Shown here in pieces: positions 12,901-58,795 of a stretch of DNA of 64,000 nt; within the stretch, counting starts at the first letter, position 1, and the number at the start of each line of letters is the position of its first letter. Both the position numbers and the translations under genes were made by a program. The stretch is taken from NCBI GenBank assembly GCA_044339595.1, contig JBIIVF010000001.1:3541-67540 (forward strand). Reading direction: 5' to 3'. Under the pieces are notes generated by a model. The model was not told the origin of the DNA, made no database searches, and was given only the letters and a program-made list of their open reading frames with translations. Source of the DNA: Bacteroidia bacterium (lineage in GTDB: Bacteria; Bacteroidota; Bacteroidia; NS11-12g; UBA9320).

Positions 12901-14518
12901 ATTCTTTAGAATTGTTAGGGTTCCGAAAATAAGTTGGATTGGCTTTAAACCACTTTGTTGGAATGACGGCTTGGTGAGCTTGAATACTTTGAGTAAGGTT
13001 GATCCTAAAGATGGTATTTGGATCAGTATGGATACCTTGGGATATACCAAAATGCCGGCTGGTTCTATTCTAGGCGACACTTTAGATACCCGCAAAACAG
13101 ACCCATTGGGTAAGACCTATTACATGCGTTACTTGCATACAGCGAGCGGATGTCCGGTTTGGAAGGATACTACATTAACCATCAATCCGTTGCCAAAAGT
13201 AACGCCAACACCTTTGCCGCCCTTGGTCTGTGAGAATGAAGCCCCGATTACACTTGGTGCCACACCATCAGGCGGAACCTGGAGTTCTCCTCAAACCGGC
13301 GTAGTGAGTGCAGGCAGGTTCTCACCGGCCACTTCACCGACGGGTGTTTCATTAAAAATGATATACCGATATACCAATCCGGTAACGGGTTGTTCGGGTT
13401 CTGATTCTATTACCTCGATGGTAGAAGCCTTGGCGGAAGTAGAAATACTGACAGCTGATTTGGATACATGCCGCAGTCCGCTGATGAGCAAGTTGGTATC
13501 TGCCCGATTTGCCAATACCCCATCGATTACCTGGATGCCACTGAGTGGTGGAACGGTAGACAATGCCAAAGGCAATCCTGTAACCTTTACCTTCAGCACC
13601 ACCCATGATACCATGCAACAACTGTTGTTGTATGTTATGACCGAAGATGGCAATGCTTGTCCGTTTGTGGATGACTTATTGACCATCAGGGTGCATCCGA
13701 TTCCACATGTAACGGTAACGCCGGATGATCCGAATGGATGTAATCCGCATGCTGTAACCTTTAACACGGTATTCAATAACAAGGTAAATCCTGCCACGGC
13801 TACCTATGCCTGGGATTTTGGAGATGGAGCAACCGGCTTGGTTCAAAACCCGGTGCACAGTTATACCAAAGAAGGGGTGAGCAATGTGAGTTTGAAAGTA
13901 ACGAGCGATCGGGGTTGCGATAGTTCTGTGGGCCTACAGGTGGAAGTATATCCGAATCCGCAAGCCGACTTTACACCCAATCCAAATAACTACACCACCG
14001 CCGCCTTACCGAGGTTCAAATTTATTAACCAATCTATAGTCAGCAATGTATTGGGCAGTTATTTGGATAAACATGAATGGGATTTTGGAGATCCAAACAG
14101 CAATACCGATACCTCAACCGAACATAGTCCAATGTTTTACTACCCGGGCGATACGGCCAATTATCAGGTATGGTTGAAGGTGACCACCAATTACGGTTGT
14201 ACAGACAGCACCATGCGTTTGGTCAGAATCGGGCCTGACATATTGGTATTTATTCCGAATGCATTCACACCGGGCAAGGGAGGTCCTTCAAAAAATGAGG
14301 ACTTCAATGTTGTGGCCAGCGGGTTTAAAACTTACAATATGATGATCTTCAACCGTTGGGGTGAAATCATCTTTGAAAGCAATGATATCAACAAAGGTTG
14401 GGATGGCACATTCAACGGTGCAGATTGTCAACAGGATGTATATGCCTATTCATTGAAAGTAACGAGCCTGAATGATGAAAGCTATGAATACTCCGGAGTT
14501 ATTCACTTGCTGAGATAA
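9926..14518 (+). CDS. Large cell-surface adhesin-like protein of 1530 aa with a gliding-motility-associated C-terminal domain (CHU_C, T9SS type-B CTD)
   Basis: The protein has a signal peptide (MRIIYIILLGLFIPLSQISKA), a Cys-rich N-terminal region and a Pro-rich linker (TPPPPAPTPTPD). Repeated PKD/Ig-like modules (WDFGDGATG..., WDFGDPNSNTD...) follow. The C-terminus (IPNAFTPGKGG...NEDF...FNRWGEIIFES...GWDG...VYAYSLKV) matches the CHU_C pattern. Confidence 0.85.
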   Translation: MRIIYIILLGLFIPLSQISKADHIIGSDLSYRCSGTNDSIWKVTFNFYRDCNGCYVLSQSPKCGTSENCNSSQTAPTAVAIRCMDNNSSVGTLNLVRTSITDITKTCKAVKSKCAQPCNTSYPYGIEKHTFEGTLDLRAAMRNGCCRFELSALLYVRNVAITTGQQQQSFFTFAELNACAKPCNSSPALTNDPVAILCCNQPYVFNNGAVDTANYDSLSYSFSGAFQNRNQLNTYNGGRSPSNPIQAYYPNPLKHPYTNPDANPPIGLYLDAESGDIIFTPTDCSQVAVVVMQIDEWRKDSTGKYKNIGITRRDMQFIVTQCPDNNPPRITNTKYLFNTCEGSQICFNISTDDKVFTPPPPAPTPTPDTVTLTWNRGIPGATFKILNPNDRLKTGEFCWTPPVGTSSTLPYSFTATVTDDACPKNASSTRSFRILVKPKAQDTRKYADLGCGFYSAKATPANNFAGTPSYDWQIRDSTGILIFDKKTAYFKSTGTFISTKDSDVVHFRKGGKYILQHIVNNKPNDCPTTYYDTLIIPDLLEVNLALGKDTFVCIGATLRFSPYLKNEKAPVSYKWATPSVHNSKDTLSYFDISPTTDTAVSLFVQDGSKCTAWDTVRIFLRENPKVKIGPDLRICSYDSALFVPVIDTVKTKINDSTWVNQGNTFRYTWYLNKVPYSSDSILRINQKGSYELHVVDSLGCIGKDTAILYVNDVVTAYAGVDQVKCWNDSLVLVAQGLDTAGNGKSGTYRWWDITSNAPIRINKGTASTLKFPIKVTTDFQLELFVTEDTTTCYHADTINVKVNALPVITKPTDQSVCCDAGDIGLNLLSPTPAPAGGKWYSNQRSDIVVFDKTFLTGKVCDPTNKTTWSLVYEYTDPATTCINRDSIKIVVNPLPRVTLKEGYYCQDLQKTKLIKHVLQPGNPNLGTQEWKCVDCRGYKESDLIKNVGSPLFPDYELNFDETTMNLGSKNEDTLFLEFSFRDGSGCRNKDTAFFRIVRVPKISWIGFKPLCWNDGLVSLNTLSKVDPKDGIWISMDTLGYTKMPAGSILGDTLDTRKTDPLGKTYYMRYLHTASGCPVWKDTTLTINPLPKVTPTPLPPLVCENEAPITLGATPSGGTWSSPQTGVVSAGRFSPATSPTGVSLKMIYRYTNPVTGCSGSDSITSMVEALAEVEILTADLDTCRSPLMSKLVSARFANTPSITWMPLSGGTVDNAKGNPVTFTFSTTHDTMQQLLLYVMTEDGNACPFVDDLLTIRVHPIPHVTVTPDDPNGCNPHAVTFNTVFNNKVNPATATYAWDFGDGATGLVQNPVHSYTKEGVSNVSLKVTSDRGCDSSVGLQVEVYPNPQADFTPNPNNYTTAALPRFKFINQSIVSNVLGSYLDKHEWDFGDPNSNTDTSTEHSPMFYYPGDTANYQVWLKVTTNYGCTDSTMRLVRIGPDILVFIPNAFTPGKGGPSKNEDFNVVASGFKTYNMMIFNRWGEIIFESNDINKGWDGTFNGADCQQDVYAYSLKVTSLNDESYEYSGVIHLLR

Positions 14519-19232: not shown

Positions 19233-22200
19233 CTACCTTATCAGCAACAAAGTGCCTTTTTCTTGTTTCAAAATCGACTTTTTACCCTTGTAATTTAAAA
19301 TATACAGATAAACTCCATTCTGACATGCAGCGCTTTTATAACTGCCATCCCAACCTTCATTTTTATCCATCGAATGAAACACTTTTTCACCCCATCGATT
19401 GTAAATTACCAATTCGTAAAAATTCGTTCCAACCACCAACGGCCTGAAAATTTCATTTTTATTATTTCCATCCGGAGAAAAAGCATTGGGAATGATTGCG
19501 TAAACAGAATCGTTCAAACAAACCGGGAGTGAAAGGCTGTCTGAACACCCTCCGGAATTAAATACGACCAATTTTACGGTATATCTGGATGTATCCGGAG
19601 AATAAATGTGGAATGGGTTGAATGCCGGATCAAAATTTTCTTGTTTACCATCTCCATAAAACCACGTTCCACTCTCGGCACCCTGACTTTGATTGATGAT
19701 TCTTAACTCAGGATTGAAAGGATCCAGACAAAAACCGGTTCTGGGAATGGTTATGAAAGATGCTTTTATTTTTGGATATCCGGGGATGGTGGTGAACGTG
19801 TCGAGAAAACAGCCGGTCACTTGGTTTTTAATGCTTAAGGTGTAACGATTTGAAACGAATGCGGTTAAGCGATAACCTTTAAAAGGTGGAGCTGTGTTCC
19901 AAGTTACCGTGTAAGGATCAGTTGTGCCGGGAGTGACTTCCGCAAACCCCTTTTCCCCATAACATTTAATGGGGCTCGTAAGAATGGCAGCGGTTACAGC
20001 AGGATGCACCACGATGTAAGCAGAATCGGTGGCTTCATTCGAACAACCATCGTTCAACCAAACTTTGTGATAACCGGTAATGGATGGGGTATAAAACAAA
20101 CTATTTCCGGTTTGTCCGGTCGACCAACGGAATGAATAATCCGAAGTGATCCCTCCGCTTCCTTTGGCATCAAGCTGCACTGATCCCCCTTTACAAAGGG
20201 TATCATTGGTGCTCAATGCTTTCACTTTCAATCCAGCCATAACGGTGGCCACGATTGAATCAATTCGGTAACACGTAGACGTGCCATAACGGTAATAAAG
20301 GGTATGGTTTCCCGAACCGGCCATAGAGGGGTTAAACTGATTAATATTGACCCCATTTCCCCAGAAATTTCCTCCTGACGGAGAACCGGTCAAAGAAATG
20401 AGGGTGTCTCTGAAACAATGAACACCCGCCGCACCACTCAACTGCACAATCGGCAAGCCTGTCACGGTAATTCTCACCGAATCTTTACAACCGTTTTTGG
20501 ATAGATATCGGATGATATGAATTCCAACACCGGCTCTTCCCGGGTTAAATACCCCATTCAACGAATCTATGATTCCATTCCCTAAAAATTTGCCCCCGGT
20601 TTCTGCATTCCTGAGCTTAAATGACGGGTCTGCTACGCAAAAACTGGTATCCTTTTGAATATCGCTTTTTGGATATACCAAAAATGTAGTACTATCCAAA
20701 CACCCGTTAAAATCATAGATCAATTTGTGGCTACCGTAACCTGCCAAAGAAGGCGTAAAGTAATACAATGAACTAATCCCTGAACCATTCCAAAGACCTC
20801 CAAATGGTGTTACCTGAACGGAATTGAAATCGAGTAAAATCTGAGGATTCTCAATACAGAAATTTTTATTCTTCACGTAAACGTAGACATTGCGTAAATA
20901 CATGATTTTTTTGGCACTGCAATCACCGTAGATGTATTCAATCGTATCGTTGGTTACCTTACCCACCAAAGCCGGATTATACACTCCCATGGCAGAATCT
21001 GCGACCCCTTTCCCTTTCCAGTATCCGCCGGCCGGAATACCTGGTAACATGGTAAACGAAGGTTGTGATAGACAAATCACTTGATTTCCACGCGCATTGA
21101 TATTTTCAACCGTCATTTTTAAAGTATCACGACATCCGCGCATGGTATAGATGAGGTTTTTGGTGCCAATTCCTGCCGTATTCGTATTAAAAATGCCCAA
21201 ATTGGTATTGATGATTCCTGTGCCACTCCAAGTGCCCCCTTGAGGCGTGAATGACAAGGTGATGTTTCCTGCCGATAAACAAATGGTGTCTGTATCCGGC
21301 ACCTTGATAGAATCAACATTAATTATTTTGTTCGCAGTGCAACCATTCCAGGTATAGGTCACCACATAAATCCCTGACGAATCCGGATTGAAAAGACCTG
21401 CAGCATTGATCTTTGGACCACTCCAGGTACCACCGGCAGGTGAATGGCCTGAAACAAAAAACGGCGACGTTCCCGGGCATGCCGCATTTGGCAATCCTCC
21501 GCTGATGGCTCGAACATCTACAACCACTGTATCAGCACATCCGTTTATCAGGTATAACACGGTATCTCTTCCTGCACCGGCCGAAAAGGGCAAATAATTA
21601 CCGGTGGATGCATTGGTGATCCCTTTACCTTTCCAGGTGCCCCCGACAGGATCTCCACTTAATACAAAGGCACCGCCACTTTGACAAACGGAAGTATCTT
21701 TAGGCGCCAATGGCTTAGGTTTTACTACAATGGTAATGGTATCCGAACCGGGTATCGCTACGCCATCACTGACGGTTAGAATGTAGGTGGTTGTGATCAT
21801 TGGACACACCTTCAAAGGGGGCTTTGCATTGCCCAATCCCTGATTCCATGAATAGGCGTATCTTGTGGAGTCCCCTCCATTCACATCCGCAAAAATATTT
21901 GTGCAACCCCGCTCACAAATGGTGTCTGGTGCCGCTCTTAAGGTTACGTTTATAGGACAATCGGTAATACTAAAAGTTGTATTTGCCTCAAGAATCCAGG
22001 CAGAATCGCATCGATCGTATTTCACACTTCTGAAGCGCAAAGCATAACTACCTCCGCGGTTTAGCCCTGAACTCAGCGTGATTTCAAATGAATCCGTTTC
22101 TCCATTTACACACCCAATGGGAGTTACTTTGCTGATTGCAGGGACGAATGAACCTGACAAAGTGAATGTACTATCATAAATAGAGTCGCATATGAATTTC

Positions 22201-22703
22201 TGGTCCAGTCTAACGCGCAAAACGGAAGTACTGCAACTCACAATCGGTTTTCGAACGAATTTAGGAGAAGGCAGGGGTAAAATCTTTGTTCTCCACTTGG
22301 CCTTCCAGCCAAAACAAGCGACACTTGCATCTGACTGAAAATAAATAGTAAGACAAGAATCAGATGATTTGATCACTCCGGGTGATTTAGTGCCATGATG
22401 TCGGCCTCCTATTTTGGCTGCGAATGTGTCACGTCCATCATAAAATTGCAAAAAATCGACATCTTTTTCCGTACAAAAGCTATCAAATTCTAAGGAAACA
22501 TAATCTCCACCGGGAACACAAACCGAAAATATGAGTCGCTCATTGTGTGCATAATCACCCTTTATAATGCCGAGGTCGCTGTCTGTAAATATTCCCTTAC
22601 AGTCGTAAACCCGGTAGTTTTGCATACTGTAGATATTCTGACCTTGCACATGTGAAAGGAGAATATAGATGAGATGAATACATAAAAAACTAAGCTTACG
22701 CAT
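19233..22703 (-). CDS. Surface protein of 1156 aa with an N-terminal CUB domain and a CHU_C (T9SS type-B) C-terminal domain
   Basis: A signal peptide (MRKLSFLCIHLIYILLSHVQG) is followed by a CUB-like module (GIFTDSDLGIIKGDYAHNERLIFSVCVPGGDYVSLEFDSFCTEKDVDFLQFYDG) and then repeated Ig-like units with GGTW/GG.W motifs. The CHU_C tail is IIPNAFSPDGNNKNEIF...YNRWGEKVFHS...GWDG...GVYLYIL. Confidence 0.8.
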   Translation of the reverse strand: MRKLSFLCIHLIYILLSHVQGQNIYSMQNYRVYDCKGIFTDSDLGIIKGDYAHNERLIFSVCVPGGDYVSLEFDSFCTEKDVDFLQFYDGRDTFAAKIGGRHHGTKSPGVIKSSDSCLTIYFQSDASVACFGWKAKWRTKILPLPSPKFVRKPIVSCSTSVLRVRLDQKFICDSIYDSTFTLSGSFVPAISKVTPIGCVNGETDSFEITLSSGLNRGGSYALRFRSVKYDRCDSAWILEANTTFSITDCPINVTLRAAPDTICERGCTNIFADVNGGDSTRYAYSWNQGLGNAKPPLKVCPMITTTYILTVSDGVAIPGSDTITIVVKPKPLAPKDTSVCQSGGAFVLSGDPVGGTWKGKGITNASTGNYLPFSAGAGRDTVLYLINGCADTVVVDVRAISGGLPNAACPGTSPFFVSGHSPAGGTWSGPKINAAGLFNPDSSGIYVVTYTWNGCTANKIINVDSIKVPDTDTICLSAGNITLSFTPQGGTWSGTGIINTNLGIFNTNTAGIGTKNLIYTMRGCRDTLKMTVENINARGNQVICLSQPSFTMLPGIPAGGYWKGKGVADSAMGVYNPALVGKVTNDTIEYIYGDCSAKKIMYLRNVYVYVKNKNFCIENPQILLDFNSVQVTPFGGLWNGSGISSLYYFTPSLAGYGSHKLIYDFNGCLDSTTFLVYPKSDIQKDTSFCVADPSFKLRNAETGGKFLGNGIIDSLNGVFNPGRAGVGIHIIRYLSKNGCKDSVRITVTGLPIVQLSGAAGVHCFRDTLISLTGSPSGGNFWGNGVNINQFNPSMAGSGNHTLYYRYGTSTCYRIDSIVATVMAGLKVKALSTNDTLCKGGSVQLDAKGSGGITSDYSFRWSTGQTGNSLFYTPSITGYHKVWLNDGCSNEATDSAYIVVHPAVTAAILTSPIKCYGEKGFAEVTPGTTDPYTVTWNTAPPFKGYRLTAFVSNRYTLSIKNQVTGCFLDTFTTIPGYPKIKASFITIPRTGFCLDPFNPELRIINQSQGAESGTWFYGDGKQENFDPAFNPFHIYSPDTSRYTVKLVVFNSGGCSDSLSLPVCLNDSVYAIIPNAFSPDGNNKNEIFRPLVVGTNFYELVIYNRWGEKVFHSMDKNEGWDGSYKSAACQNGVYLYILNYKGKKSILKQEKGTLLLIR

Positions 22704-23150
22704 CTATTTTTTGATGGTGATTTCTTTAGTCTGAATATAATTGCTCCAATTACCTGCGCGATCTTTCATTCTTATATCATATTGTGTGCGCTCGTCTCCG
22801 CCGGAACCTAACAAGAAAGTATTGCGCAAACGCAACTGCATAGAACCTTTAATTTTAATGTTGCTGCCAATAGGTGCCATGGGTGGCACATAATAAAAGT
22901 CGGGATTGGTCAATCGGGCATCCTGGACTTCGAGCAATAGGATATCCGGGTTTTTATGTCCAAGATCACCATCCCCATCTTCATACTCGAAAGTAACAAT
23001 GACACTATCCGTAAACTGATTTACAATTTCAGGAGTAATGCTGATGTATCGGATATTCGGTATCACATTGTTTGAGGGTAAAACTGCGTCATCTGCACTG
23101 CAACCCCAAACAGAAATTGAAATCATCACGATATAAAATACCCTCTTCAT
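22704..23150 (-). CDS. Hypothetical lipoprotein of 148 aa
   Basis: The product has a lipoprotein signal (MKRVFYIVMISISVWGCSADD). Its stop codon abuts the start codon of the CHU_C gene, and its start overlaps the upstream gene by 4 nt. Confidence 0.5.
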   Translation of the reverse strand: MKRVFYIVMISISVWGCSADDAVLPSNNVIPNIRYISITPEIVNQFTDSVIVTFEYEDGDGDLGHKNPDILLLEVQDARLTNPDFYYVPPMAPIGSNIKIKGSMQLRLRNTFLLGSGGDERTQYDIRMKDRAGNWSNYIQTKEITIKK

Positions 23151-24097
23151 TGCAGTTTAATTGCACAGTAACGTTTAGCGCTGAACAGACTGTTATCATT
23201 GGGTAATTGGGAGGGGGCACTCACACCATCTCCTATTTTTGTTCTTATCCATAAAACATCTCCGGCCATTGCAATCTGTCGGGTATCAATGGTGATTTTG
23301 TGATGGTAATCAACCATTTCCTTGTAAAAACCAAGGGCTGATTTCGGGGTAGAAACAAATTCTATATTGTATTCCTTCAACGAATCGTAAACATTGGCCA
23401 TTTTAGAAAAACTGGCCTTCAGACCGGTCAGATTGCCCACCGGTGTTTTATCGTCGGCAAATGAAATCCAGACTTCAACCGTTCCGGCACCTGAATTTAT
23501 TTCCATGAAATTATAATGACTTTGGCGGTTGACCAAGTTGCCATTTTGATATAATTGCATTCCTTGCAATTGAACAGGAAAATTCACCGCTTCCGGCCCT
23601 TTCCCGTTGATATCGAGCGCCCCATTCTCTATCCACTTTTTTATATTGTTGATGTATTCATCTTTTTTAAATTTCCAGTCACTGCCCGGCTCGGTAACCA
23701 ATGGCATGATGCCCGAATTATTGTTCAAATCTTCGGTCAGTCTTTTCAAGATCATAGAAGTAGCTGCATTTCCAGGAGTCACCCTTGAAGTAAACGGATT
23801 GAGCTCATCATTTTTAATGATGGGTTGATTGACCAAGGTGTTGTATGTACTGGTAATGCTTCTGAAATCCGGCTCGAAATTGCCATCATGACAACCGCTA
23901 TTGGCACAGGTTGGCTTGAATATATTCTTGTGCAATCCGGCGATCGACTCAGGATCAGGCGTCGTATCTACACCGTCTATACCGATGTAAACATTGTTAT
24001 CCTTCTGATTGTAAGGGTTCGATGGCTCTGTGCCCTTCTCAGAACATGCAGATAGCATCGCAAACAGGCCGATTCCGATCAGTAACAGATTTCTCAT
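23147..24097 (-). CDS. Hypothetical lipoprotein of 316 aa with a C-x4-C-H motif (FKPTCANSGCHDG)
   Basis: The product has a lipoprotein signal (LFAMLSACSEKG). The Cys/His motif lies at nt 23888-23908. It overlaps the DUF1501 gene by 4 nt. Confidence 0.5.
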   Translation of the reverse strand: MRNLLLIGIGLFAMLSACSEKGTEPSNPYNQKDNNVYIGIDGVDTTPDPESIAGLHKNIFKPTCANSGCHDGNFEPDFRSITSTYNTLVNQPIIKNDELNPFTSRVTPGNAATSMILKRLTEDLNNNSGIMPLVTEPGSDWKFKKDEYINNIKKWIENGALDINGKGPEAVNFPVQLQGMQLYQNGNLVNRQSHYNFMEINSGAGTVEVWISFADDKTPVGNLTGLKASFSKMANVYDSLKEYNIEFVSTPKSALGFYKEMVDYHHKITIDTRQIAMAGDVLWIRTKIGDGVSAPSQLPNDNSLFSAKRYCAIKLQ

Positions 24098-25440
24098 ATT
24101 CTGTCAAATAAAGATCGACTCGCGCCGTCAATAATACCGGCATTGGCCACATCATCTTTAATACCGAAAATTTCTGCGATGGTCAGTACATTGTCTGTGG
24201 CTAAACCAACCGGACTTGTGTCATTCCCCAACATCAGGTTGGTGGGGACATTAGGACCTGCCATGGAAGTGAAAATGCGCTGTGTATTTGCATCTCCGCT
24301 GTGGTCAAATGCAAACCAGTCATTTTCATCCTGAATTGGATTAGGTCTAAGATTACGACCGCATTCAGGAGTAGCAATCATGATGGTTTTACCGGCCATT
24401 TCAGGGATTTGTGTTTGAATGTAATTCCATAAAAATCCAACAGCGTGATCTGCTCTATGGAGTGCTCTCAAATAACCGGAAAAGCTCGAATGACAACCAT
24501 CTACGTTACTCATATTAACTACGGTAATTTTCGGTTTAAACCATTTCATCACTTCCGCAGCATAGGAAACATTCAACAAATCGCTGTTGTCATTTACAGG
24601 AGGTGAGGCGATGCCGCCGGATTGTTGTCGCTGAAATATTGACTTTATGAACTCCTTTATATTATTTTTCTCCTCTTCTGTATTGGTGATATTTGGAATC
24701 TCTCCATTTTTTACCCTGAAAACATTATCTAAAAATTGCTTCATTTTATAAATGGGCTCCATTTCTTCTTGAGGATGATAAACTTTCGCATTAGATAACA
24801 CTTCTCTCCCCTGTTGGCCAAAGGTGATCAGTGGTGCGAAGAAATTAGCTCCATATTCGAGACCATAGGCACTGTGATTACTGCAATTGAGCAGCGGCAC
24901 TGAACTGCCAATGGTGTTGCCAATAAACCAGGCATCTGTAGCTTTGAACCCTCTATGACGACGCAGATATTCAAATATAGTTGGATTTTGGGGTCTCACT
25001 TTTAAACCTTGTGTTGCGGCCCGCGTGCCGGTGAGCAATGATGTCAAGCCACCATAATGCCCTCCGTTCACAGCCCTGACCTCACGAAAAAGGGTCCCCT
25101 GCTTCTGAAGCGTAGTATTCAATAATTTTGGTATCGGCCTGCTAAAAGGCACATCGCCCGGAGGTGAAGTTCCGTAGACAATTTTATTGGTTGGAGCTTC
25201 ACCATCCAGCATGTTGTACATGATGTTACCGGCATATTCAAGCCCCTGACTATCATCTAAATAACGTTGCAAAATGCTCTCTTGATGTCTAACACCACCG
25301 GCAAATAAGACATACACAACGTGATCCGCCAAGGGCGTTCCGGTTTTAGCAAATAATCGCCCTGAAGGAAGCAAATAAGGGAATGCCAAACTTCCGGCGG
25401 CCAACAGGGCTGATTTTTGGATAAACTCTTTTCTTTTCAT
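24094..25440 (-). CDS. DUF1501 family protein, a sulfatase/alkaline-phosphatase-like protein that is probably Tat-exported
   Basis: The N-terminus (MKRKEFIQKSALLAAGSLAFPYL...) is followed by a VVYVLFAGGVRHQES block that resembles the DUF1501 'RVIfLfmsGGpSq' motif. A C-terminal FDHSGD...MAGPNV block is also present. This assignment is based on motifs only. Confidence 0.6.
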   Translation of the reverse strand: MKRKEFIQKSALLAAGSLAFPYLLPSGRLFAKTGTPLADHVVYVLFAGGVRHQESILQRYLDDSQGLEYAGNIMYNMLDGEAPTNKIVYGTSPPGDVPFSRPIPKLLNTTLQKQGTLFREVRAVNGGHYGGLTSLLTGTRAATQGLKVRPQNPTIFEYLRRHRGFKATDAWFIGNTIGSSVPLLNCSNHSAYGLEYGANFFAPLITFGQQGREVLSNAKVYHPQEEMEPIYKMKQFLDNVFRVKNGEIPNITNTEEEKNNIKEFIKSIFQRQQSGGIASPPVNDNSDLLNVSYAAEVMKWFKPKITVVNMSNVDGCHSSFSGYLRALHRADHAVGFLWNYIQTQIPEMAGKTIMIATPECGRNLRPNPIQDENDWFAFDHSGDANTQRIFTSMAGPNVPTNLMLGNDTSPVGLATDNVLTIAEIFGIKDDVANAGIIDGASRSLFDRI

Positions 25441-25450
25441 GTTGCCCGGT

Positions 25451-25957
25451 TTAATAAAACTGATATTCTTCTGATGCCGAAAATGCTGTATAAACCAATT
25501 CTGTGGTCACATTAGGATTGGCTTCAATATAGTTTCTAAAAAAAGTAACTTCCAGCTCACTTGGATCTCGTACAAAAAATCTCCGGTAGGTCTTTTTGAT
25601 AAATGCATCAATATCTGCCCGCATTTCGATATCGGTAGGAATTTGCCGACTTGGAGAATTCATGTAATTGCTGATGATTAATTCATAAGCCAAAGCACGA
25701 TCTCCAATAGAATAAATAACATTTTCAGTCTTTACCAACTCATTCACTGAAATAGGTTTTTGGAGTAAGTTGGTGGAAAGGATGGAAATATATTGAGCAT
25801 CACTTTTGGCCTTTCCCTTTTTGATAAACTGACTGTTTACCGGAGTCTCATTCACTCCATAATCTGCGTTGATCAGTTCTTTTTTACATCCCGCCAAAAC
25901 GGACATATAAAAAAGTAATCCTACCCATATGACTGACTTAGAAATTTGCATATTCAT
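25451..25957 (-). CDS. Hypothetical lipoprotein of 168 aa
   Basis: The product has a lipoprotein signal (LFYMSVLAGCKKE). It overlaps the upstream lipoprotein gene by 20 nt. Confidence 0.45.
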   Translation of the reverse strand: MNMQISKSVIWVGLLFYMSVLAGCKKELINADYGVNETPVNSQFIKKGKAKSDAQYISILSTNLLQKPISVNELVKTENVIYSIGDRALAYELIISNYMNSPSRQIPTDIEMRADIDAFIKKTYRRFFVRDPSELEVTFFRNYIEANPNVTTELVYTAFSASEEYQFY

Positions 25958-26879
25958 CCGTTACCAAAATTTTTTGTTGCAGGGCCGGTAAATCTCCGTT
26001 GGATTTGAATTCTTTGAACAATACAGCCGTCTCTTCAGTTCTTGGTTCTCTTCCCAGTAAATTCTGAAATACCCATTTTATTATTCCTTCATAAAACTCG
26101 TCGCTGTGGCAGAGCAATAGACAATACTCCCTCTTATTGGAAGCATAACTACCCATCAAAGCTCCCAATTTATTGGTTTCGATGATAGAATAGGCTGTTT
26201 CAAATTCTATTTTGGTGGGGAAACGATAAAACAAATCGTCAAAAGATGCATTCACAAAATTGAACGTATTCATGTTGATGTTGTCGTATACATTGTTGTC
26301 GAGCATCCGCGCATACATTTCATTCAGCGTAATGCTGCCAAAACGATACTCATCTTTTGAAGTTACAATTCTGCCATTTCTCGCCATTTGCTCCAGTGCC
26401 TGAAAAACTCGAACAGAATCTCCTTCTAATCTGGCAATGGTTAAAGAAAATTGTGCCAATCCTACGTGACGGGTAAACTCACCGTCTGCCGCCCCTTCGC
26501 ATAAGCTTGATTTCACCATATCGTAAATCCGCTGGTAGTATGCCTTTTTGTAAGAAGAATCTCCTTCTACAAAGGTGTCACTGGATTGTAAACGTGTGAT
26601 TAGATTGAGTCTCACATCTTTTGAAAGCTTTCCATCTTTGAGTCTTGCTACTTCAAGATTCATTTCATTTTGAGTTGGAACCCTGCCCAATAAATCGATG
26701 TACAAGCGGTTTACGTAGTTTTCTACTTTAACGGTTGGCACAGTACCCGGCAGCAGGGCTTGATTGCCATCATACGTTTTGTTTACCACTTCTGTTTTGC
26801 AAGCGCTAAAAAATGACAGGAGCAAAAGCAATCCAAAATAAATCCGAAAACGGGCAAATTTCAATAAAAACTGATCCAT
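25938..26879 (-). CDS. Hypothetical lipoprotein of 313 aa with repeated 'LLGR.PT..E' motifs
   Basis: The product has a lipoprotein signal (LLLLSFFSACKTE). The motifs YIDLLGRVPTQNEM and FQNLLGREPRTEET are reminiscent of DUF1549/DUF1800-type repeats. Confidence 0.45.
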   Translation of the reverse strand: MDQFLLKFARFRIYFGLLLLLSFFSACKTEVVNKTYDGNQALLPGTVPTVKVENYVNRLYIDLLGRVPTQNEMNLEVARLKDGKLSKDVRLNLITRLQSSDTFVEGDSSYKKAYYQRIYDMVKSSLCEGAADGEFTRHVGLAQFSLTIARLEGDSVRVFQALEQMARNGRIVTSKDEYRFGSITLNEMYARMLDNNVYDNINMNTFNFVNASFDDLFYRFPTKIEFETAYSIIETNKLGALMGSYASNKREYCLLLCHSDEFYEGIIKWVFQNLLGREPRTEETAVLFKEFKSNGDLPALQQKILVTDEYANF

Positions 26880-26950
26880 TAAAGTGTTGTCGATAACAAA
26901 TCTAAGTAATTACAACGACAATTACAAGTCGTGTTTTTTATTGCTTTCGT

Positions 26951-28264
26951 CTAATTATTTTGAAAAAAGTTGCACGCATGTCGGTCATACCAATCCTTTA
27001 AGAAGAAATAGTGATCGTCCTGATACTTTTTATCTGTCTGGGCTAAATCCCATGGGATGAACCTAAAATTCCCCATCTTATCGCAATGAAGATATAAAAA
27101 CTTAAATCCACTGTTAATGAGTACTTCTCCGGAGGGTGTTTTGGCCAACTCAAGGGTGGCATAACCGGTTAAGTGGCTCCAGCTAAAAATATCATACGCA
27201 ACAAAATCCCCTAAGGAATAATACACGATTCCCCGAACTTCTTTTCCATCAGATTTGCGGTGATAATGAACCACTTCAGAAGGCTGAAGATTATGCGGAT
27301 GATGGATAAAAATAACGTCCGGCTCCCCGAATTCAAAAATCTCCAATACCCGATTTCTGATATGTTCAGAGGGATAGCATTGATAGGCATTGCCCATATG
27401 GAGCGAGGCAATCACCACCTCTGCCCCTTGACTTTTAGCGGCTTTGAGTGCATCAAAAAGTGGATGAATATCGCTCAAAGGATCATTTAATCTCAAATGG
27501 CAGATAATATCCATCGCCTCATCATCCGGATTCACCCGATTGAGTGAATAGGTGTAATTCACAATCCCGATGTTAAACCCATTTTTTTGGAGGATTACGA
27601 AGTCATTTTCCCCCTTATGACGACGCGCTCCGGAGAACGGAATTTTACGACTGTCAAGAAATTGCATCGTCTCTTTTAACGAGCTTGTGCCGGCATCGAG
27701 CATGTGGTTGTTCGCCAGACTGAGATAATCGTAGCTATAACTCCCATGGGCTGTAAATACATCCAGCAATGCTCTACTACCATTGAACTGCATGTCGTTG
27801 AGCATTAATTCAGGAACATACGAAGGTTTTTTAAAAAAATCCATGGGCGTCTCCAGATTAGCCATGGTAATATCACTTCCAAAAAAGTCCTCCCCACATA
27901 AAGACCAAAGTTCATCGGATCGACCATTTATCATCACTTCATAAGGCATCAGGTCTCCGCCTGCATGAATCATCAACCGATCTGCTTGTCCGGTGATTTC
28001 TTTTAAAGAGCGTTGACTGTCAGCAATTTGTCCGGACTCATGTGGCTTACCGTAATATTTAGCCCCCAAATAAAGGGCATCTTTCCAGGTAAAGTAGGCC
28101 GGATTTTCTTCAAAGCTTTTCAGTGGATAACCCCATCTCGATTTATTAAAATAGGCGATTAATTTAAACAATGCCTTCAATGGAATTAACAACAATCTGC
28201 CCAAGAAACTCCAACCACGCACAGGGTAGTATTGATGAATTGATTTTTTTTGCACTGTTTTCAA
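26951..28264 (-). CDS. CapA/PgsA-family metallophosphoesterase with an N-terminal membrane anchor
   Basis: Metallophosphatase motifs are present (LANNHMLDAG, GAEVVIASLHMGNAY, YSLGDFV). The protein is 437 aa. Confidence 0.7.
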   Translation of the reverse strand: MKTVQKKSIHQYYPVRGWSFLGRLLLIPLKALFKLIAYFNKSRWGYPLKSFEENPAYFTWKDALYLGAKYYGKPHESGQIADSQRSLKEITGQADRLMIHAGGDLMPYEVMINGRSDELWSLCGEDFFGSDITMANLETPMDFFKKPSYVPELMLNDMQFNGSRALLDVFTAHGSYSYDYLSLANNHMLDAGTSSLKETMQFLDSRKIPFSGARRHKGENDFVILQKNGFNIGIVNYTYSLNRVNPDDEAMDIICHLRLNDPLSDIHPLFDALKAAKSQGAEVVIASLHMGNAYQCYPSEHIRNRVLEIFEFGEPDVIFIHHPHNLQPSEVVHYHRKSDGKEVRGIVYYSLGDFVAYDIFSWSHLTGYATLELAKTPSGEVLINSGFKFLYLHCDKMGNFRFIPWDLAQTDKKYQDDHYFFLKDWYDRHACNFFQNN

Positions 28265-28390
28265 AAGTAAGGTCTGAAATTTTGAAAATTGAAAAAGACT
28301 TTGACTTATTGATCTCAGACTTAGATTTTACAATTTCCTTTTGATCTTATCTTATGGTTTAAAGATATCAAATCAACCCTTATTTGCCCA

Positions 28391-28412
28391 TTGCTGCAAC
28401 TTGCTGCAACTT
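28391..28412. promoter_or_regulatory. Two tandem copies of TTGCTGCAAC, each containing the 9-bp palindrome TTGCnGCAA, spaced exactly 10 bp apart in a divergent intergenic region
   Basis: The repeat is read directly from the sequence. It lies between the CapA-like gene on the minus strand and the gene for the small CTD-only protein on the plus strand. Confidence 0.3.
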
Positions 28413-28526
28413 AATTCATACAACTTGTCTTCTACAGTGAACACCTCTGAATAATTTTTCAACGATTTTAAAAGGATTTTTGGATTGGAACGATTTTTAA
28501 TATATCTTCGTAAAACGAATCAGTGT

Positions 28527-28877
28527 ATGAATAAAGGAGTACTATTAATGATTGTGATGATGGGAGCTTTGACTTTCGCCGCCCTACCCGGCAAAGCGAT
28601 TGGTCCGATTTACCCTTCAGGCACTGAAGCTCAGAGCATTAAGCTTGGGCAGAACTATCCTAATCCGGCTAACAGCAAAACTGTAATCGACTTATCTTTT
28701 ACTTCTTCTGAAGCAACTTTAACCATTTACAATGTTCTTGGTAAAGTGGTGGACGAATTTTCAGTGATTGACAAGCGTTTCATTTTGGATGTAACCAACT
28801 ATCCTGAAGGTGTGTATCTCTATACACTCGAAGCAGACGGAGAAAAACTTACCCGTCGCATGACTGTGAGAAAATAA
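28527..28877 (+). CDS. Very small (116 aa) protein made of a signal peptide plus a T9SS type-A C-terminal sorting domain, with only about 15 aa of 'cargo'
   Basis: The signal peptide is MNKGVLLMIVMMGALTFAALPGKA. The remainder (NYPNPANSKTVIDLSF...LTIYNVLGKVV...YPEGVYLYTLEADGEKLTRRMTVRK) covers all the conserved T9SS C-terminal domain motifs. Confidence 0.65.
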   Translation: MNKGVLLMIVMMGALTFAALPGKAIGPIYPSGTEAQSIKLGQNYPNPANSKTVIDLSFTSSEATLTIYNVLGKVVDEFSVIDKRFILDVTNYPEGVYLYTLEADGEKLTRRMTVRK

Positions 28878-28913: not shown

Positions 28914-30269
28914 TTAAGTGAGGAGTAAGTTCCCTATCAGAAAGTAAATAAACATTCCGAGTAAGTCGTTAGACGTTGTGATAAAAGGCCCGGTTGCCAA
29001 TGCCGGATCTATCTTTAATCGATCTAGCAATAAAGGAATGGTAGCTCCCATAACAGAAGCAAAAACAATGGAGGCAAATAAAGAAATACCTACTACCAAA
29101 GTAATGGCCGTGCTTTGTCCCATGAAATAGGCGATTCCGAACAATAGCGCTGAGCAAATCAAAGCATTAAAGGTTGCAACAAAAAATTCCTTTCCCAATC
29201 GTTTCGTAATACTATCCGAACCAATGCTTTCATTGGCAATACTTTGAACAATGATTGCGCTGGATTGCACACCTGCATTACCGCCCATTGCAGCAACCAA
29301 AGGCATAAAAAATGCGAGTTGAACATTTCTTTGCAAGATATCGCCATAACTACCAATCACAGCCGCATTGGCAATTCCACCCATCAGACCTATCACCAAC
29401 CACGGCAAGCGAGCTCTGGATAACAACCAAATTGTATCATCACTTTCAACACTTTCCGAAATACCGGATAACAACTGATAATCTCTTTCTGCTTCCTCCT
29501 GAATTAAATCTACCACGTCATCAATGGTTACCCTTCCCACTAAGCGATTCAGGGTATCGGTTATGGGCATCGATTCAAGATCATATTTTTTCATCAAGCG
29601 AGCAACTTCCTCTCCCTTGGTGTAAATATTGGCAGAAATGATATTGGATTCGGAAATTTGAACCACTTTGGTCTGTGCCTTGGATAAAATAATTTTTTTA
29701 AGAGATACAGTGCCTACCAGTGTGTCGCTGTCATCCACCACATAAACTGAATACACCTTGGTTACTTCCTCTGCTTGTTTTCGAATTTCTTCTGTACACT
29801 GAGCGACGGTCCAATTCTGATTCACCTTAATTAATTCTCGGGCCATCAAACCACCGGCAGAATCTTCGGGATATTTTAGAAGAGACGTTAGATTCAGAGA
29901 ATATTCCCGGTCCTGGATATGACTGATAATCTCATTAACTTCTGATGAAGAAAATTCACTTAAAATATCAGCCGCATCATCCGAATCCATATTTTCAATG
30001 AATTGATGGGCAATTTCAATTGGTGTAAACCCTCTTAGTAGCGACTCCCGGACATCGGGTTCCAATTCTGCCAGTACCTCTACCTTTTTTACTGTATCCA
30101 GAACATGCATTACATACACAGCCTGGTCTTTATCCAGTTCATTAAAAAGCTCTGCTATATCGGCCGGAAATAATTTTAGAAGAATGGACCGCAATTCCGA
30201 TTCACGTTGCTCATCAATGTGAGCAATGAACTCATCTATGAATTCTCGGGTAAGCTGGTAATGCTGCAT
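28914..30269 (-). CDS. mgtE: Magnesium transporter MgtE
   Basis: An N-terminal MgtE-N domain is followed by tandem CBS domains and a C-terminal 5-TM MgtE domain (GNAGVQSSAIIVQ, GPFITTSNDLLG). Confidence 0.85.
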   Translation of the reverse strand: MQHYQLTREFIDEFIAHIDEQRESELRSILLKLFPADIAELFNELDKDQAVYVMHVLDTVKKVEVLAELEPDVRESLLRGFTPIEIAHQFIENMDSDDAADILSEFSSSEVNEIISHIQDREYSLNLTSLLKYPEDSAGGLMARELIKVNQNWTVAQCTEEIRKQAEEVTKVYSVYVVDDSDTLVGTVSLKKIILSKAQTKVVQISESNIISANIYTKGEEVARLMKKYDLESMPITDTLNRLVGRVTIDDVVDLIQEEAERDYQLLSGISESVESDDTIWLLSRARLPWLVIGLMGGIANAAVIGSYGDILQRNVQLAFFMPLVAAMGGNAGVQSSAIIVQSIANESIGSDSITKRLGKEFFVATFNALICSALLFGIAYFMGQSTAITLVVGISLFASIVFASVMGATIPLLLDRLKIDPALATGPFITTSNDLLGMFIYFLIGNLLLT

Positions 30270-37667: not shown

Positions 37668-39296
37668 TTATTTGTTCAAGAAAATCTTGTGTGTAGAAAC
37701 ACCGTTTGAAGTGCTGATTTTCACAAGGTACAAACCATTGTTCAATGAAGTCAAATCGGCTACTACTCTGTTAGATCCCATGAAGAACTCTTCGTTGTTC
37801 ACGATTGCGTAAACGGTACGTCCTGACAAGTCAGAAATTTCCATGTTTACCATTTGGTTGTCAGTAAGGTCGAAATCAACCTGAACTGTTCCGTTGGTAG
37901 GGTTAGGATATACGTTCAAGTTCAACACAGCGAAGTTAGAAACTGATCCTGGATTTGGTGGGATAGAATCATACTGAGCATTGTTTGGATCGAAGTTCGT
38001 CCAACCGGCCATCCAATTATCTGTTTCACCAAAAGCACCGATGTAAGACGTTGCAGTAAAGTTGGTGTTATTTAATTTAGCATTGGCAAATGAAGCACCA
38101 CTTAAAGCAGGTGAACCGGCCATTGGTCTGAAATCAGGATTGCTGTAATTGAAAGCGTCTTTCAACATTACCGAAGAATTCAAGGCATATCTGCGGTTGT
38201 TGTTTCCGGTACTGTCATAGAAAGCAGTAAAATCGGCAGTTACTACTCCACCTTGTCCGCTAAAATAAGTCTTATTTCCCGCTACGATATTGTTTTGCAA
38301 GAAACCAACATTGGTTCTGAAGTTGTTGAATGTGGTTGCTCCATCCATTCTGACACCTTCTCTCCAGCCCATAATAACTGAATTGAAGATAGAAATTTCA
38401 TTGTTTCTTCTCAAGTGGGCACCTCTTCCGTGCAAAGAAGCTCTTACGTCTGAAGTATCTTTAAACGCACCGATTACGGTCATATTTGAAAACACCGCTG
38501 CAGTTTTAGGAGTTTCATTGGTTCCACCTGCATCATTGTCCACTTCAAAACCATTTTTGGTAGACACGTCAGCAACATTAGGATCTGCCAATGACACACC
38601 AAATTGTACATTCCCTCTAAATCCCTGATCTACGTCGAAATCGTCATCATTGGTTTTGAAAGCCACCAGGTGCTTGGCGTTTACGGCTCCACCGAACCAT
38701 TCGAAAGCGTCATCATTGTTAAATGAACACTGCACATAGTCAATGGTCGTTCCATTTCCTACAGCACACATAGTCAATGAATTCAATTCGCGATCTTGTT
38801 CAAAAGGAAAACCGGCAAACTCAATGCGACAATATTTCAAAGTACCACTGTTATCTGTATCATCCGATCCACCGTAGTTACCGGGTATTACACCCCCTTC
38901 ATAGGTTGGATTAACTTTGTTGGCTTTGGCATTTCCAAAAATCACAATCCCTCCCCAATCTCCATAGTCTCTTTGACCTTTAGGTTCACCGGAAGTAAAC
39001 ACGATTGGCTTTTCTTTGGTTCCGATAGCAACCAATTTTCCACCTTTGTCAACCAAAAGACAAGTTGCATTGGATTGATCCGGAGCTTTTCCTCCTTTTA
39101 CGACAGTTCCAGGCTCAACAGTCAGGGTTACACCGTTCTGAATGCGCACAATACCGCTTAATACATAAATTTTGTCGGCAGTCCAGGTTGCGCTGGCTGT
39201 GATGTTGGAAGTCACATTAACCACCTGTTTTGCTGTTTGAGATTGAACGAACTGAGCACTCAGAATCGTTAGCATCATTAGGAATAATTTTTTCAT
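37668..39296 (-). CDS. Secreted parallel beta-helix-like protein with a T9SS type-A C-terminal domain
   Basis: A signal peptide (MKKLFLMMLTILSAQFVQSQ) is followed by repetitive Gly/Asn-rich beta-strand modules. The C-terminus (LNLNVYPNPTNGTVQVDFDL...GLYLVKISTSNGVSTHKIFLNK) matches the T9SS C-terminal domain. Confidence 0.75.
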   Translation of the reverse strand: MKKLFLMMLTILSAQFVQSQTAKQVVNVTSNITASATWTADKIYVLSGIVRIQNGVTLTVEPGTVVKGGKAPDQSNATCLLVDKGGKLVAIGTKEKPIVFTSGEPKGQRDYGDWGGIVIFGNAKANKVNPTYEGGVIPGNYGGSDDTDNSGTLKYCRIEFAGFPFEQDRELNSLTMCAVGNGTTIDYVQCSFNNDDAFEWFGGAVNAKHLVAFKTNDDDFDVDQGFRGNVQFGVSLADPNVADVSTKNGFEVDNDAGGTNETPKTAAVFSNMTVIGAFKDTSDVRASLHGRGAHLRRNNEISIFNSVIMGWREGVRMDGATTFNNFRTNVGFLQNNIVAGNKTYFSGQGGVVTADFTAFYDSTGNNNRRYALNSSVMLKDAFNYSNPDFRPMAGSPALSGASFANAKLNNTNFTATSYIGAFGETDNWMAGWTNFDPNNAQYDSIPPNPGSVSNFAVLNLNVYPNPTNGTVQVDFDLTDNQMVNMEISDLSGRTVYAIVNNEEFFMGSNRVVADLTSLNNGLYLVKISTSNGVSTHKIFLNK

Positions 39297-46344: not shown

Positions 46345-46471
46345 GGTAAAAATTTGCGCAAAAATAGCAATCCTCTTAATAACCGGCTTTCTCTTTAAAA
46401 TATATCTCAGCCCGCCATTTCTGCTAAATCTCTGAAATGGCTTAAGTTTGTGCGTTAGAATTAAACCAAAC

Positions 46472-49400: not shown

Positions 49401-49630
49401 TGCTTGGAATTAGCAGTCTTGCCGGAGGGCACCGCACCCTGGTACCAGAAGTTATCGATGCATTAAGGACACAAGGAAGAAGTGATATTCTTGTTATTGC
49501 AGGAGGTGTAATTCCACAACAAGACTATGATTCCTTAAAGAAATCAGGTGTAGCCGCCATTTTTGGACCTGGAACTGTGATCAGCAAAGCCGCCATAGAA
49601 ATCATGGACATGCTTCCCGACCGGGCTTAG
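46472..49630 (+). CDS. Methylmalonyl-CoA mutase, a long form of 1053 aa. It comprises an N-terminal extension of about 340 aa, the substrate-binding barrel and a C-terminal B12-binding domain.
   Basis: Residues from about 360 to the end align with the E. coli Sbm/MutB pattern ([50 protein letters not shown]...). The C-terminus carries the DxHxxG B12 motif ([16 protein letters not shown]). The first 340 aa have only a mutase-like N-terminus ([14 protein letters not shown]...TEGF) and no B12 domain. Confidence 0.8.
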
Positions 49631-58791: not shown

Positions 58792-58795
58792 TCCA

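Follow-up and report, generated by a model that had tools for sequence, protein, structure and literature searches.

T9SS C-terminal sorting domains (CTDs) are regarded as disposable tags, and here we describe a protein family that consists of the tag only, a sign that the fold can have a function in its own right. The member studied is encoded in a stretch of 64,000 nucleotides (the window), as a 116-aa protein in which a Sec signal peptide and a short linker lead directly into a complete type-A CTD. We hold with high confidence that this CTD-only protein, referred to below as the mini-CTD protein, is real and functional; it is a new architectural variant of a known domain family, and a literature search found no description of CTD-only, stand-alone, decoy or small T9SS proteins. 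Because the protein lacks a passenger and evolution can do without its linker, the CTD fold itself appears to be the functional unit. As to what it does, a PorA-like monitoring or regulatory role, suggested by analogy, is possible but rather unlikely, and the blended proposal of a real CTD-only protein that has such a role falls somewhat short of an even call.

The translated open reading frame shows the NYPNPANSKTVI, IYNVLGKVV and GVYLYTL...KLTRRMTVRK blocks, and two profiles agree on the extent of the domain. Pfam PF18962 (Por_Secre_tail) matches residues 44-113 over profile positions 2-74 of 75 (E 2.2e-12; 47.5 bits, against a Pfam cut-off of 27 bits), and NCBIfam TIGR04183 matches residues 44-114 (E 2.7e-12; 46.5 bits, against a cut-off of 23 bits). 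Both matches are far above chance and reach the extreme C-terminus, ending at residue 113-114 of 116, and profile searches of Pfam and NCBIfam returned no second domain. A passenger domain is absent, as just 14 non-conserved residues separate the predicted signal cleavage site from the CTD. The first-pass annotation had read the protein as a signal peptide and short linker followed by a complete type-A CTD, with domain boundaries that leave essentially no cargo, and the profile searches bear out both points. By inspection only, the Sec signal (residues 1-24) has an n-region, MNK, containing K and a 17-residue hydrophobic core, and ends in G-K-A followed by I, which fits the -3/-1 rule; an equivalent K/R-rich n-region and hydrophobic core is found in every orthologue, though the signal sequence itself is not conserved.

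An AF2 model predicts the CTD (about residues 39-116) with a pLDDT of 95-98 and places strands at residues 39-49, 51-57, 63-69, 74-80, 84-88, 95-103 and 106-114, the last of these with a pLDDT of about 96. The linker residues 25-38 have values of 48-70, and the signal peptide is modelled as a low-confidence helix at residues 4-11. Foldseek matched this model to the CTDs of mirolase (8qb1) and PorZ (5m11), as well as to those of NucA, FspA and RemZ bound in SprA-PorV (8glk_D, 8glj_D and 8gl8_D), with target-normalised TM-scores of 0.73-0.80 to the NucA, FspA and mirolase CTDs; the profile matches the FspA CTD at E 1.6e-9. On the model, the domain is a complete type-A CTD, predicted as a seven-strand beta-sandwich like the solved ones. 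By profile and fold it belongs to the same family as the CTDs of ordinary type-A cargos (FspA, NucA, RemZ, RgpB, mirolase), which likewise have a Sec signal peptide and carry the CTD at the C-terminus. In those cargos, however, the CTD is a disposable tag on a passenger of hundreds to thousands of residues, whereas the mini-CTD protein has no passenger and the tag is its conserved part.

The gene is monocistronic and lies 262 bp from a divergent PGA_cap-family gene. An in-frame stop precedes position 28485, and with the divergent gene starting at 28264 there is no room for a cargo, so that an upstream hidden or frameshifted cargo, which would have pointed to a true start far upstream, cannot exist. 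A longer start at TTG 28485, which gives a mechanical 130-aa open reading frame, was considered and rejected: this TTG lies within a conserved upstream block and is therefore not a start codon, and the orthologues all begin at the equivalent of ATG 28527. The features of the locus are collected in Table 1.

Table 1. Features of the mini-CTD locus, in window positions
Feature	Position	Strand	Description
PGA_cap-family gene	26951-28264	-	divergent neighbour of the mini-CTD gene
Tandem repeat	28391-28412		TTGCTGCAAC x2.2
Promoter-like / 5' regulatory block	28485..28510	+	TTGGAAC-N11-TATCTTCG, ends 16 nt before ATG
Cargo-less T9SS type-A CTD protein, full CDS	28527..28877	+	116 aa, stop codon included
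Signal peptide	28527..28598	+	residues 1-24, MNKGVLLMIVMMGALTFAALPGKA; predicted cleavage after A24, by sequence inspection
Variable linker	28599..28640	+	residues 25-38, 14 aa, IGPIYPSGTEAQSI; sole 'passenger' of the mature protein
T9SS type-A C-terminal sorting domain	28641..28874	+	residues 39-116, modelled seven-strand beta-sandwich
mgtE	28914-30269	-	convergent with the mini-CTD gene

Related genomes, which the first-pass annotation had proposed to survey, contain orthologous mini-CTD genes. At least 21 contigs from public metagenomes carry the identical 116-aa protein in an unchanged gene order, and orthologues of 85-120 aa were found in at least 37 species-level MAG loci. Homologous clusters (n=31, 87-146 aa) all match PF18962 only, and below this family, whose members all come from metagenomes or MAGs, the next-best matches (30-38% identity) are ordinary large cargos. 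Further CTD-only families were also seen, for example P0041, P0078, P0089 and P0142. The hosts of the mini-CTD family form a clade of uncultured aquatic Bacteroidota, with loci L001-L010 coming from lakes, in which the gene has been retained over the long term in core-genome neighbourhoods.

Purifying selection on the gene is strong and centres on the CTD. Most comparisons with the window gene are saturated at synonymous sites, and across the 92 unsaturated pairs the median dN/dS is 0.17 and the highest value 0.41. Twenty-five of the 81 CTD columns are at least 90% identical in an alignment of 38 sequences. Over 17 syntenic genomes, mean identity to the window is 60% for the CTD, 59% for MgtE and 50% for RsmA, and identities to the L059 genome are 79.5% for the CTD, 77.6% for ribosomal protein L13, 76.7% for MgtE and 41% for LpxK. 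Across dozens of species, the family matches a magnesium transporter or a ribosomal protein in how tightly it is conserved. High CTD conservation is not unique to it, as the type-B CTD of the neighbouring 1156-aa cargo, the sole cargo-CTD control for this comparison, is 72% identical between window and L059; for a type-A cargo, the 542-aa beta-helix protein at 37668-39296, the fetched loci contain no orthologue. Within the mini-CTD protein the contrast is sharp, with just 24% identity to the L059 orthologue over signal peptide and linker together. Not one column of the linker is conserved in the orthologue alignment, between 23 and 43 residues separate the start codon from the CTD, and in many orthologues only about 3-4 residues would remain ahead of the CTD after signal-peptide cleavage. 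The last two strands are conserved on both faces, together with several charged residues; E102, D104, K107 and R110/R111 are invariant residues at the surface, and the last strand is nearly invariant and basic-rich (K-x-T-[RK]-[RK]-[ML]-T-V-[KR]-K). The window CTD has 10 K/R; the family mean is 9.3, with 4.9 in the last 12 residues, which is higher than in large-cargo CTDs (mean 7.1, with 3.4 in the last 12), in a comparison of phylogenetically non-independent sequences where the large-cargo set was chosen by similarity to the mini-CTD family.

Conservation also extends to the region ahead of the gene, where a five-genome alignment of the intergenic region shows a single conserved block. Its family consensus is TTGGCAC-N12-13-TAnnTTTG(A/T)AA, and the pattern TTGG[CAT]A[CT]-N10-14-TAnnTT[TC]G occurs 34 times in 689,835 bases (window and loci, both strands), with 30 of the occurrences 8-20 nt upstream of a mini-CTD start codon. 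The pattern points to a dedicated, gene-specific conserved upstream block of promoter-like character. It may be an ECF-type site, reading GGAAC-N17-CGTAA in the window, or may be a sigma-A site with an unusually short -33/-7 spacing. A sigma-54 reading of TTGGCAC was not adopted, given that the -12 GC element is not conserved (TTT[GATC] stands in its place, then the TAnnTTTG box). Searches of the region for known RNA elements and an intrinsic terminator found none, and no sigma-70 site was above chance. The first-pass annotation had also linked this lone gene to a tandem palindromic repeat in the same intergenic region. The repeat exists, but the tie to the gene does not hold: the repeat is species-specific, lies outside the conserved upstream signal, and is not conserved in relatives, even in L061, a locus that encodes an 87%-identical protein, so it was set aside as a regulator.

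The mgtE-rsmA neighbourhood recurs in 21 of the 37 loci, and the conserved neighbours are all housekeeping genes (MgtE, RsmA, LpxK, methylmalonyl-CoA mutase, UbiA/MenC-like, RecJ, PfkB and PNPase), so that guilt by association across the 37 loci yields no functional clue. In none of these loci is a T9SS core gene or porX, porY or sigP adjacent to the mini-CTD gene, nor are porV, porQ and porU co-localised with it, and gldKLMN, sprA, porV and porU are absent from the 64-kb window and the fetched loci. The window does hold four further type-A or type-B CTD cargo genes, which may suggest that the organism uses a T9SS, and its sole histidine kinase (58796-60805) is not identifiable as PorY.

The closest functional precedent is PorA (PGN_0123) of Porphyromonas gingivalis, which like the mini-CTD protein is small and has a Sec signal and a type-A CTD; it is the smallest verified type-A cargo, according to its authors (PMC12152298). 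The active part of PorA is its CTD, not its passenger: the CTD alone is the ligand of the sensor kinase PorY, its C-terminal 69 residues suffice, when fused to Halo, to activate PorY-PorX-SigP, and activity requires at least six basic residues and an intact last strand (PMC12152298). The mini-CTD protein likewise has a basic-rich, nearly invariant last strand, and the window CTD, with its 10 K/R and a modelled last strand, has the features that PorA requires, which are necessary but not specific. PorA, however, has 246 aa and a 134-residue FimH-like Ig domain ahead of the CTD; this Ig domain is absent from the mini-CTD protein, which is therefore not a PorA orthologue and could at most be a functional analogue. 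The likeness was drawn from the published description of the PorA CTD. So far a single oral pathogen is known to have the PorA-PorY link; its authors predicted equivalents in other T9SS bacteria (PMC12152298). PorA can also reach the surface without the T9SS (PMC7712824).

The reading that we put forward, tentatively and as one of low probability, is that a CTD freed of cargo acts as a signalling molecule, a minimal PorA-like flux sensor whose periplasmic level, set by Sec import against T9SS export, would inform a sensor kinase or an envelope-stress sigma system, so that T9SS capacity follows demand, and which would have its own specialised, deeply conserved promoter. The protein would be exported by Sec and trimmed by signal peptidase I, and the free CTD of about 9-10 kDa would be recognised by the SprA/Sov-PorV translocon like any type-A substrate. 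CTDs alone suffice for T9SS targeting of mCherry (PMC10994853), and mCherry-CTD and Halo-CTD fusions show that a type-A CTD is all that is needed to bind the translocon and be exported (PMC10994853, PMC12152298); the mini-CTD protein is in effect a natural signal-CTD construct minus the reporter, whereas the engineered fusions are artificial and carry a passenger. While export keeps pace, the mini-CTD would be cleared from the periplasm; with the translocon saturated or blocked, it would accumulate and engage a periplasmic sensor, as modelled on the PorA CTD of P. gingivalis, which binds PorY and switches on T9SS genes. The protein would then be a cheap reporter or regulator of T9SS capacity. 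Such a role is one form of the decoy or regulator of the secretion machinery suggested in the first-pass annotation; a putative decoy or regulator is compatible with everything seen and has a published precedent in the PorA CTD. If the flux-sensor reading is true, the family would be an unrecognised T9SS accessory component in a large clade of environmental Bacteroidota, and the 'dual-role CTD' idea would extend beyond P. gingivalis. The mini-CTD is a natural minimal test object for the sensing or regulation of T9SS load, and also for what sets CTD recognition, cleavage or retention by SprA/PorV/PorU; at about 78 residues it is, in addition, an evolution-optimised minimal secretion tag that could serve to engineer T9SS display or secretion.

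An extracellular or PorV-bound role of the mini-CTD would account for the data equally well. It could be a minimal extracellular or surface protein, a T9SS-exported beta-sandwich that is soluble or PorV-bound and serves as a binding module (in adhesion, ligand capture or as a protein signal), with no part in secretion control, a possibility that we likewise consider unlikely in itself. The conservation of both faces of the last two strands and of several charged residues speaks for such a module, a charge higher than that of cargo CTDs is expected of a free-standing soluble domain, and there is no linkage to T9SS genes. Similar folds do stand alone in Bacteroides not known to have a T9SS: the DUF3244 proteins BT_3571 (3sd2) and BT_1867 (4g5a) of Bacteroides thetaiotaomicron are free-standing small beta-sandwiches, with solved chains of 86-99 residues, and are as close in fold to the mini-CTD model as real CTDs are (Foldseek E 1e-4 to 6e-4). 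This similarity is at the level of the fold only, however, as DUF3244 (PF11589) is not among the Pfam matches of the 116-aa protein at E <= 0.01. Against a binding module, the protein is a textbook type-A sorting domain throughout and has no added loop, pocket or insertion to hint at a new binding function, normal T9SS processing discards the CTD, and the genomic context suggests no ligand or partner. Should it turn out to be a plain small secreted protein, the family would still correct the view that each PF18962 match stands for an enzyme or adhesin carried as cargo.

A role as structural accessory or placeholder of the machinery, the 'decoy' of the first-pass annotation, appears improbable. 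Here an uncleaved CTD would remain bound to PorV or to a barrel of the PorQ/PorP type, as a cap, a primer or a competitive throttle that sets the number of free shuttles or translocons. CTDs bind SprA-PorV tightly, burying about 1,850 square angstroms (PMC10994853), and PorU and PorZ retain their CTDs, which are lasting anchors to PorV/PorQ barrels and are not discarded (PMC10202324); unlike the mini-CTD protein, however, these two are essential parts of the attachment complex, large and built of several domains, enzymatic or LPS-binding ones among them. Orthologues with just 3-4 residues before the CTD would give PorU little to cleave, and a housekeeping-level conservation in core-genome regions would also suit a structural part. 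A pure competitor, on the other hand, would waste proton-motive force, and porV, porQ and porU do not co-localise with the gene. Moreover, type-A CTDs generally show poor conservation of the surface that contacts the translocon, except for one Lys (PMC10994853), so docking by itself does not call for tight sequence conservation.

The protein had further been proposed as a carrier of a short N-terminal peptide, attached to anionic LPS or released after PorU cleavage, and the 14-aa linker with its small residues (S-G, T-E, A-Q) could hold a PorU site. The linker is, however, the least conserved part of the protein and variable in length, many orthologues would be left with next to nothing to carry, and selection acts on the CTD and not on the supposed peptide product; on this sequence pattern the proposal appears close to refuted and very improbable. 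Least credible of all, and in practice refuted, is a degraded remnant of a larger cargo gene, raised in the first-pass annotation, or a spurious open reading frame, for which the small size and the lack of any database function beyond the domain name might speak, but against which stand the same length class and cargo-less architecture under purifying selection in at least 37 species-level genomes, an intergenic region without an upstream coding remnant, the conserved promoter-like block, and an identity of 18-25% to the type-A CTDs of two large cargos in the window, from which it follows that the mini-CTD is not a recent derivative of those cargos.

The 116-aa product studied here (mini-CTD) is, by every in-silico criterion, a member of the family of type-A T9SS C-terminal sorting domains (CTDs) from which the typical cargo passenger is missing. 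Translation confirmed the ORF of the first-pass annotation, which had described a cargo-less T9SS protein composed of a signal peptide and a CTD, and both CTD profiles match above their cut-offs: PF18962 (Por_Secre_tail) at residues 44-113 (profile positions 2-74 of 75, E 2.2e-12, 47.5 bits, cut-off 27) and TIGR04183 at residues 44-114 (46.5 bits, cut-off 23), with no second domain among Pfam and NCBIfam profiles. The longest mechanical ORF opens at a TTG (28485) immediately 3' of an in-frame stop and within a conserved non-coding block. Given this stop and the divergent PGA_cap start codon 262 bp away, no upstream sequence is able to encode a lost passenger, so that the longer upstream cargo which the earlier annotation had considered as a refutation was searched for and is not possible. 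The gene is monocistronic.

Features of the mini-CTD gene and its surroundings (window coordinates; residues where stated)
Feature	Position	Strand	Remarks
T9SS type-A cargo	87-3635	+	
T9SS type-B cargo	9926-14518	+	
T9SS type-B cargo	19233-22703	-	1156 aa, CUB + CHU_C
Seven-gene cluster	19233-28264	-	divergent from mini-CTD gene
PGA_cap-family gene	26951-28264	-	divergent; start codon 262 bp from mini-CTD gene
57-aa ORF	28171-28344	+	overlaps start region of the longer PGA_cap
Tandem repeat	28391-28412		TTGCTGCAAC x2.2
Conserved upstream block	28485-28510		TTGGAAC-N11-TATCTTCG; ends 16 nt before ATG
mini-CTD gene	28527-28877	+	116 aa
Sec signal peptide	residues 1-24		by inspection; G-K-A/I at -3/-1 (slash, cleavage)
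Linker	residues 25-38		by inspection
CTD	residues 39-116		by inspection
mgtE	28914-30269	-	convergent, 36 bp past mini-CTD stop; TIGR00400, 352 bits
T9SS type-A cargo	37668-39296	-	
Methylmalonyl-CoA mutase	46448-49630	+	1060 aa; ~365-residue N-terminal extension before large-subunit match
Sensor histidine kinase	58796-60805	+	669 aa; between co-directional 229-aa and 367-aa ORFs (58102-61905)

At least 21 metagenome contigs (ENA, JGI and Logan) encode a protein identical to mini-CTD in an unchanged gene order. Searching 5.8 billion clusters returned 31 homologous clusters (44-99% identical to the window protein over the full length), all of 87-146 aa and with PF18962 as their sole domain. Scanning one genome per species, we found 48 loci, 37 of which hold a small ORF (85-120 aa with the start set at the signal peptide), while the rest encode mostly ordinary cargos of several hundred to >1,800 residues at 30-38% identity; the figure of 37 species is a minimum, as the scan relied on two peptide patterns only. 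All 37 loci are from MAGs, labeled Bacteroidia, Chitinophagaceae, Flavobacteriales or Sphingobacteriia, and every sequence of the family comes from uncultured organisms. When the homologous clusters were aligned, the initiator methionine was the sole conserved column of the signal peptide and linker, and the CTD had 20 invariant and 13 more near-invariant columns. Across 38 DNA-derived sequences the CTD spans 78-81 residues, indels are almost absent, and 25 of 81 columns reach at least 90% identity. For the 92 pairs in which dS was unsaturated, the dN/dS ratio (Nei-Gojobori) had a median of 0.17 and reached at most 0.41; between the window and its orthologues dS was mostly saturated, with dN of 0.1-0.5. 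Judged by these comparisons the gene is a conserved family and no remnant, and the degraded-cargo reading offered earlier is contradicted by a cargo-less layout that is kept, at this dN/dS, in at least 37 species.

Between the window and a fully syntenic relative (L059), identity was 79.5% for the CTD part of mini-CTD, 77.6% for ribosomal protein L13, 76.7% for MgtE, 74.3% for GlnS, 65.3% for RsmA, 51.5% for PGA_cap, 41.1% for LpxK and 23.7% for the mini-CTD signal peptide plus linker. Mean identities to the window were 60% (CTD), 59% (MgtE) and 50% (RsmA) over the 17 genomes with mgtE-rsmA beside the mini-CTD gene. The type-B CTD of the neighboring 1156-aa cargo is likewise well kept (72%, remainder 65%, window versus L059), and mini-CTD is therefore not singled out by conservation alone; its distinctive feature is that the CTD is the whole protein. 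It shares only 25% and 18% identity with the type-A CTDs of the window's two large type-A cargos, and by sequence it is an old separate lineage and no recent fragment of these cargos.

AlphaFold2, run on the family alignment, predicted a seven-strand beta-sandwich over residues 39-114 (pLDDT 95-98) and a disordered N-terminus. Foldseek searches of the PDB matched this fold to the mirolase CTD (8qb1_A, E 1.1e-4), to the NucA, FspA and RemZ CTDs from SprA-PorV translocon structures (8glk_D, 8glj_D and 8gl8_D; for 8glk_D a target-normalised TM-score of 0.80, rmsd 2.6 angstroms) and to PorZ (5m11), as well as to two free-standing B. thetaiotaomicron DUF3244 proteins (3sd2, 4g5a) at scores like those of the CTDs. 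The family profile also matched the FspA CTD sequence (E 1.6e-9).

The architecture, the fold, the selection acting on the CTD and a dispensable linker are established by these analyses; the mechanism beyond them is a proposal. Following Sec export and signal-peptide cleavage, mini-CTD would be recognised by SprA/PorV, and its function would sit in the CTD itself; isolated CTDs suffice for translocon binding and reporter export (PMC10994853). A cargo-less CTD could be the minimal form of a PorA-like reporter. The strongest precedent is PorA of P. gingivalis, which acts on the sensor kinase PorY and is described, at 246 aa, as the smallest of the verified type-A cargos. On its own, the PorA CTD binds the PorY periplasmic domain and brings T9SS gene expression back; its 69 C-terminal residues fused to a Halo tag are enough, no fewer than six basic residues are needed, and the last strand must be intact (PMC12152298). 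The authors of that study proposed that an export block raises periplasmic CTD and thereby up-regulates the system, and expected PorA equivalents in other Bacteroidota (PMC12152298). In the mini-CTD family the last strand, K-x-T-[RK]-[RK]-[ML]-T-V-[KR]-K, is nearly invariant. Charged residues exceed those of cargo CTDs (K/R 9.3 versus 7.1; D/E 9.5 versus 6.6; basic residues in the last 12, 4.9 versus 3.4), an excess that is consistent with the PorA-like model and undiagnostic, because the sequences are non-independent and the comparison set is biased. Unlike PorA, mini-CTD has no FimH-like domain and is hence no PorA orthologue; it may work like the PorA CTD, and we regard such a regulatory role as a tentative proposal, less likely than not. 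An extracellular or surface binding role is only slightly less probable, and it is rather improbable that mini-CTD serves as a placeholder or throttle of PorV and the translocon.

Across orthologues, between 43 and as few as 23 residues separate the start codon from the first strand of the CTD, and in the shortest, mostly marine, forms predicted signal-peptidase cleavage leaves about 3-4 residues before the CTD (e.g. ...NLLA/GDFPKLGLNYPNPA). The linker is, on this evidence, dispensable, and its shrinkage and hypervariability argue against the carrier of a short functional peptide that had been suggested previously; this idea and that of a remnant are, even taken together, very improbable.

HMMER, run over the full set of 1.84 billion representatives, yielded 84,376 matches at E <= 1e-3, in which the mini-CTD family proper comprises six 50%-identity clusters (P0032-P0037, E <= 2e-29). 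Below these, large cargos are mixed with many full-length proteins of 115-135 aa that consist of a signal peptide, a 15-30 residue spacer and a type-A CTD; the profile contains the signal peptide and so favors short proteins, which biases their share of the list. Examples (P0038, P0041, P0049, P0069, P0078, P0089, P0119, P0124, P0142, P0146, P0176) look unrelated, several end in TRRL[IV]V[KR][RK], and those that are named carry only the MAG annotation 'T9SS type A sorting domain-containing protein'. These matches suggest that proteins with a CTD and no cargo recur as a class in the metagenomes of Bacteroidota. Literature searches gave no description of CTD-only proteins, and public annotation of the mini-CTD family goes no further than the domain name.

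The intergenic region holds one conserved stretch only (family consensus TTGGCAC-N12-13-TAnnTTTG(A/T)AA), at equivalent positions in the 37 orthologous loci (L011-L047) and in the relatives L059 and L061. A relaxed pattern matched 34 times in 690 kb, and 30 of these matches sit 8-20 nt 5' of a mini-CTD start, which makes the block gene-specific and no generic promoter. TAnnTTTG is the Bacteroidota sigma-A -7 box, TGGCAC resembles a sigma-54 -24 box with the -12 GC absent, and the window's block can also be read as the ECF-like GGAAC-N17-CGTAA; by sequence all three are candidate readings. In marine orthologues the start codon is TTG or GTG and follows the end of the block by just 8-13 nt, a spacing that makes a simple promoter reading difficult to sustain. 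The tandem repeat, which the first-pass annotation had tied to the gene, is species-specific to the window: in L061 (87% protein identity) only one TGCAAC copy is present, and L059, L011 and L012 lack any copy. Neither an Rfam family nor a terminator was found in the mini-CTD region, and no sigma-70 site exceeded chance.

As in the window, mgtE and/or rsmA lie tail-to-tail with the mini-CTD gene in 21 of the 37 loci. In 13 other species (the type-2 loci among L013-L035) its immediate convergent neighbor is the orthologue of a fused methylmalonyl-CoA mutase, located 18 kb off in the window; either the mini-CTD gene has thus changed place between two sites of the core genome, or these sites were themselves rearranged. 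In the marine group, UbiA-prenyltransferase and MenC-like genes precede it. Neither the window nor the 37 loci have a T9SS component or regulator next to it. Four further T9SS cargo genes within 64 kb suggest that the organism uses this system heavily. The window also encodes a sensor histidine kinase, a candidate envelope sensor not recognisable as PorY from NCBIfam matches.

The divergent cluster runs from the PGA_cap-family gene (437 aa) through ORFs of 313, 168, 448, 316 and 148 aa, none with a confident Pfam or NCBIfam match, to the 1156-aa cargo. It is wholly syntenic in L059 and L061 (448-aa protein 84% identical) and is a possible operon, uncharacterised so far, for surface or secretion functions. 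Public gene calls on the identical contigs conflict, giving PGA_cap either 409 aa with an opposite-strand 57-aa ORF, or 437 or 434 aa alone; the 57-aa ORF is probably spurious.
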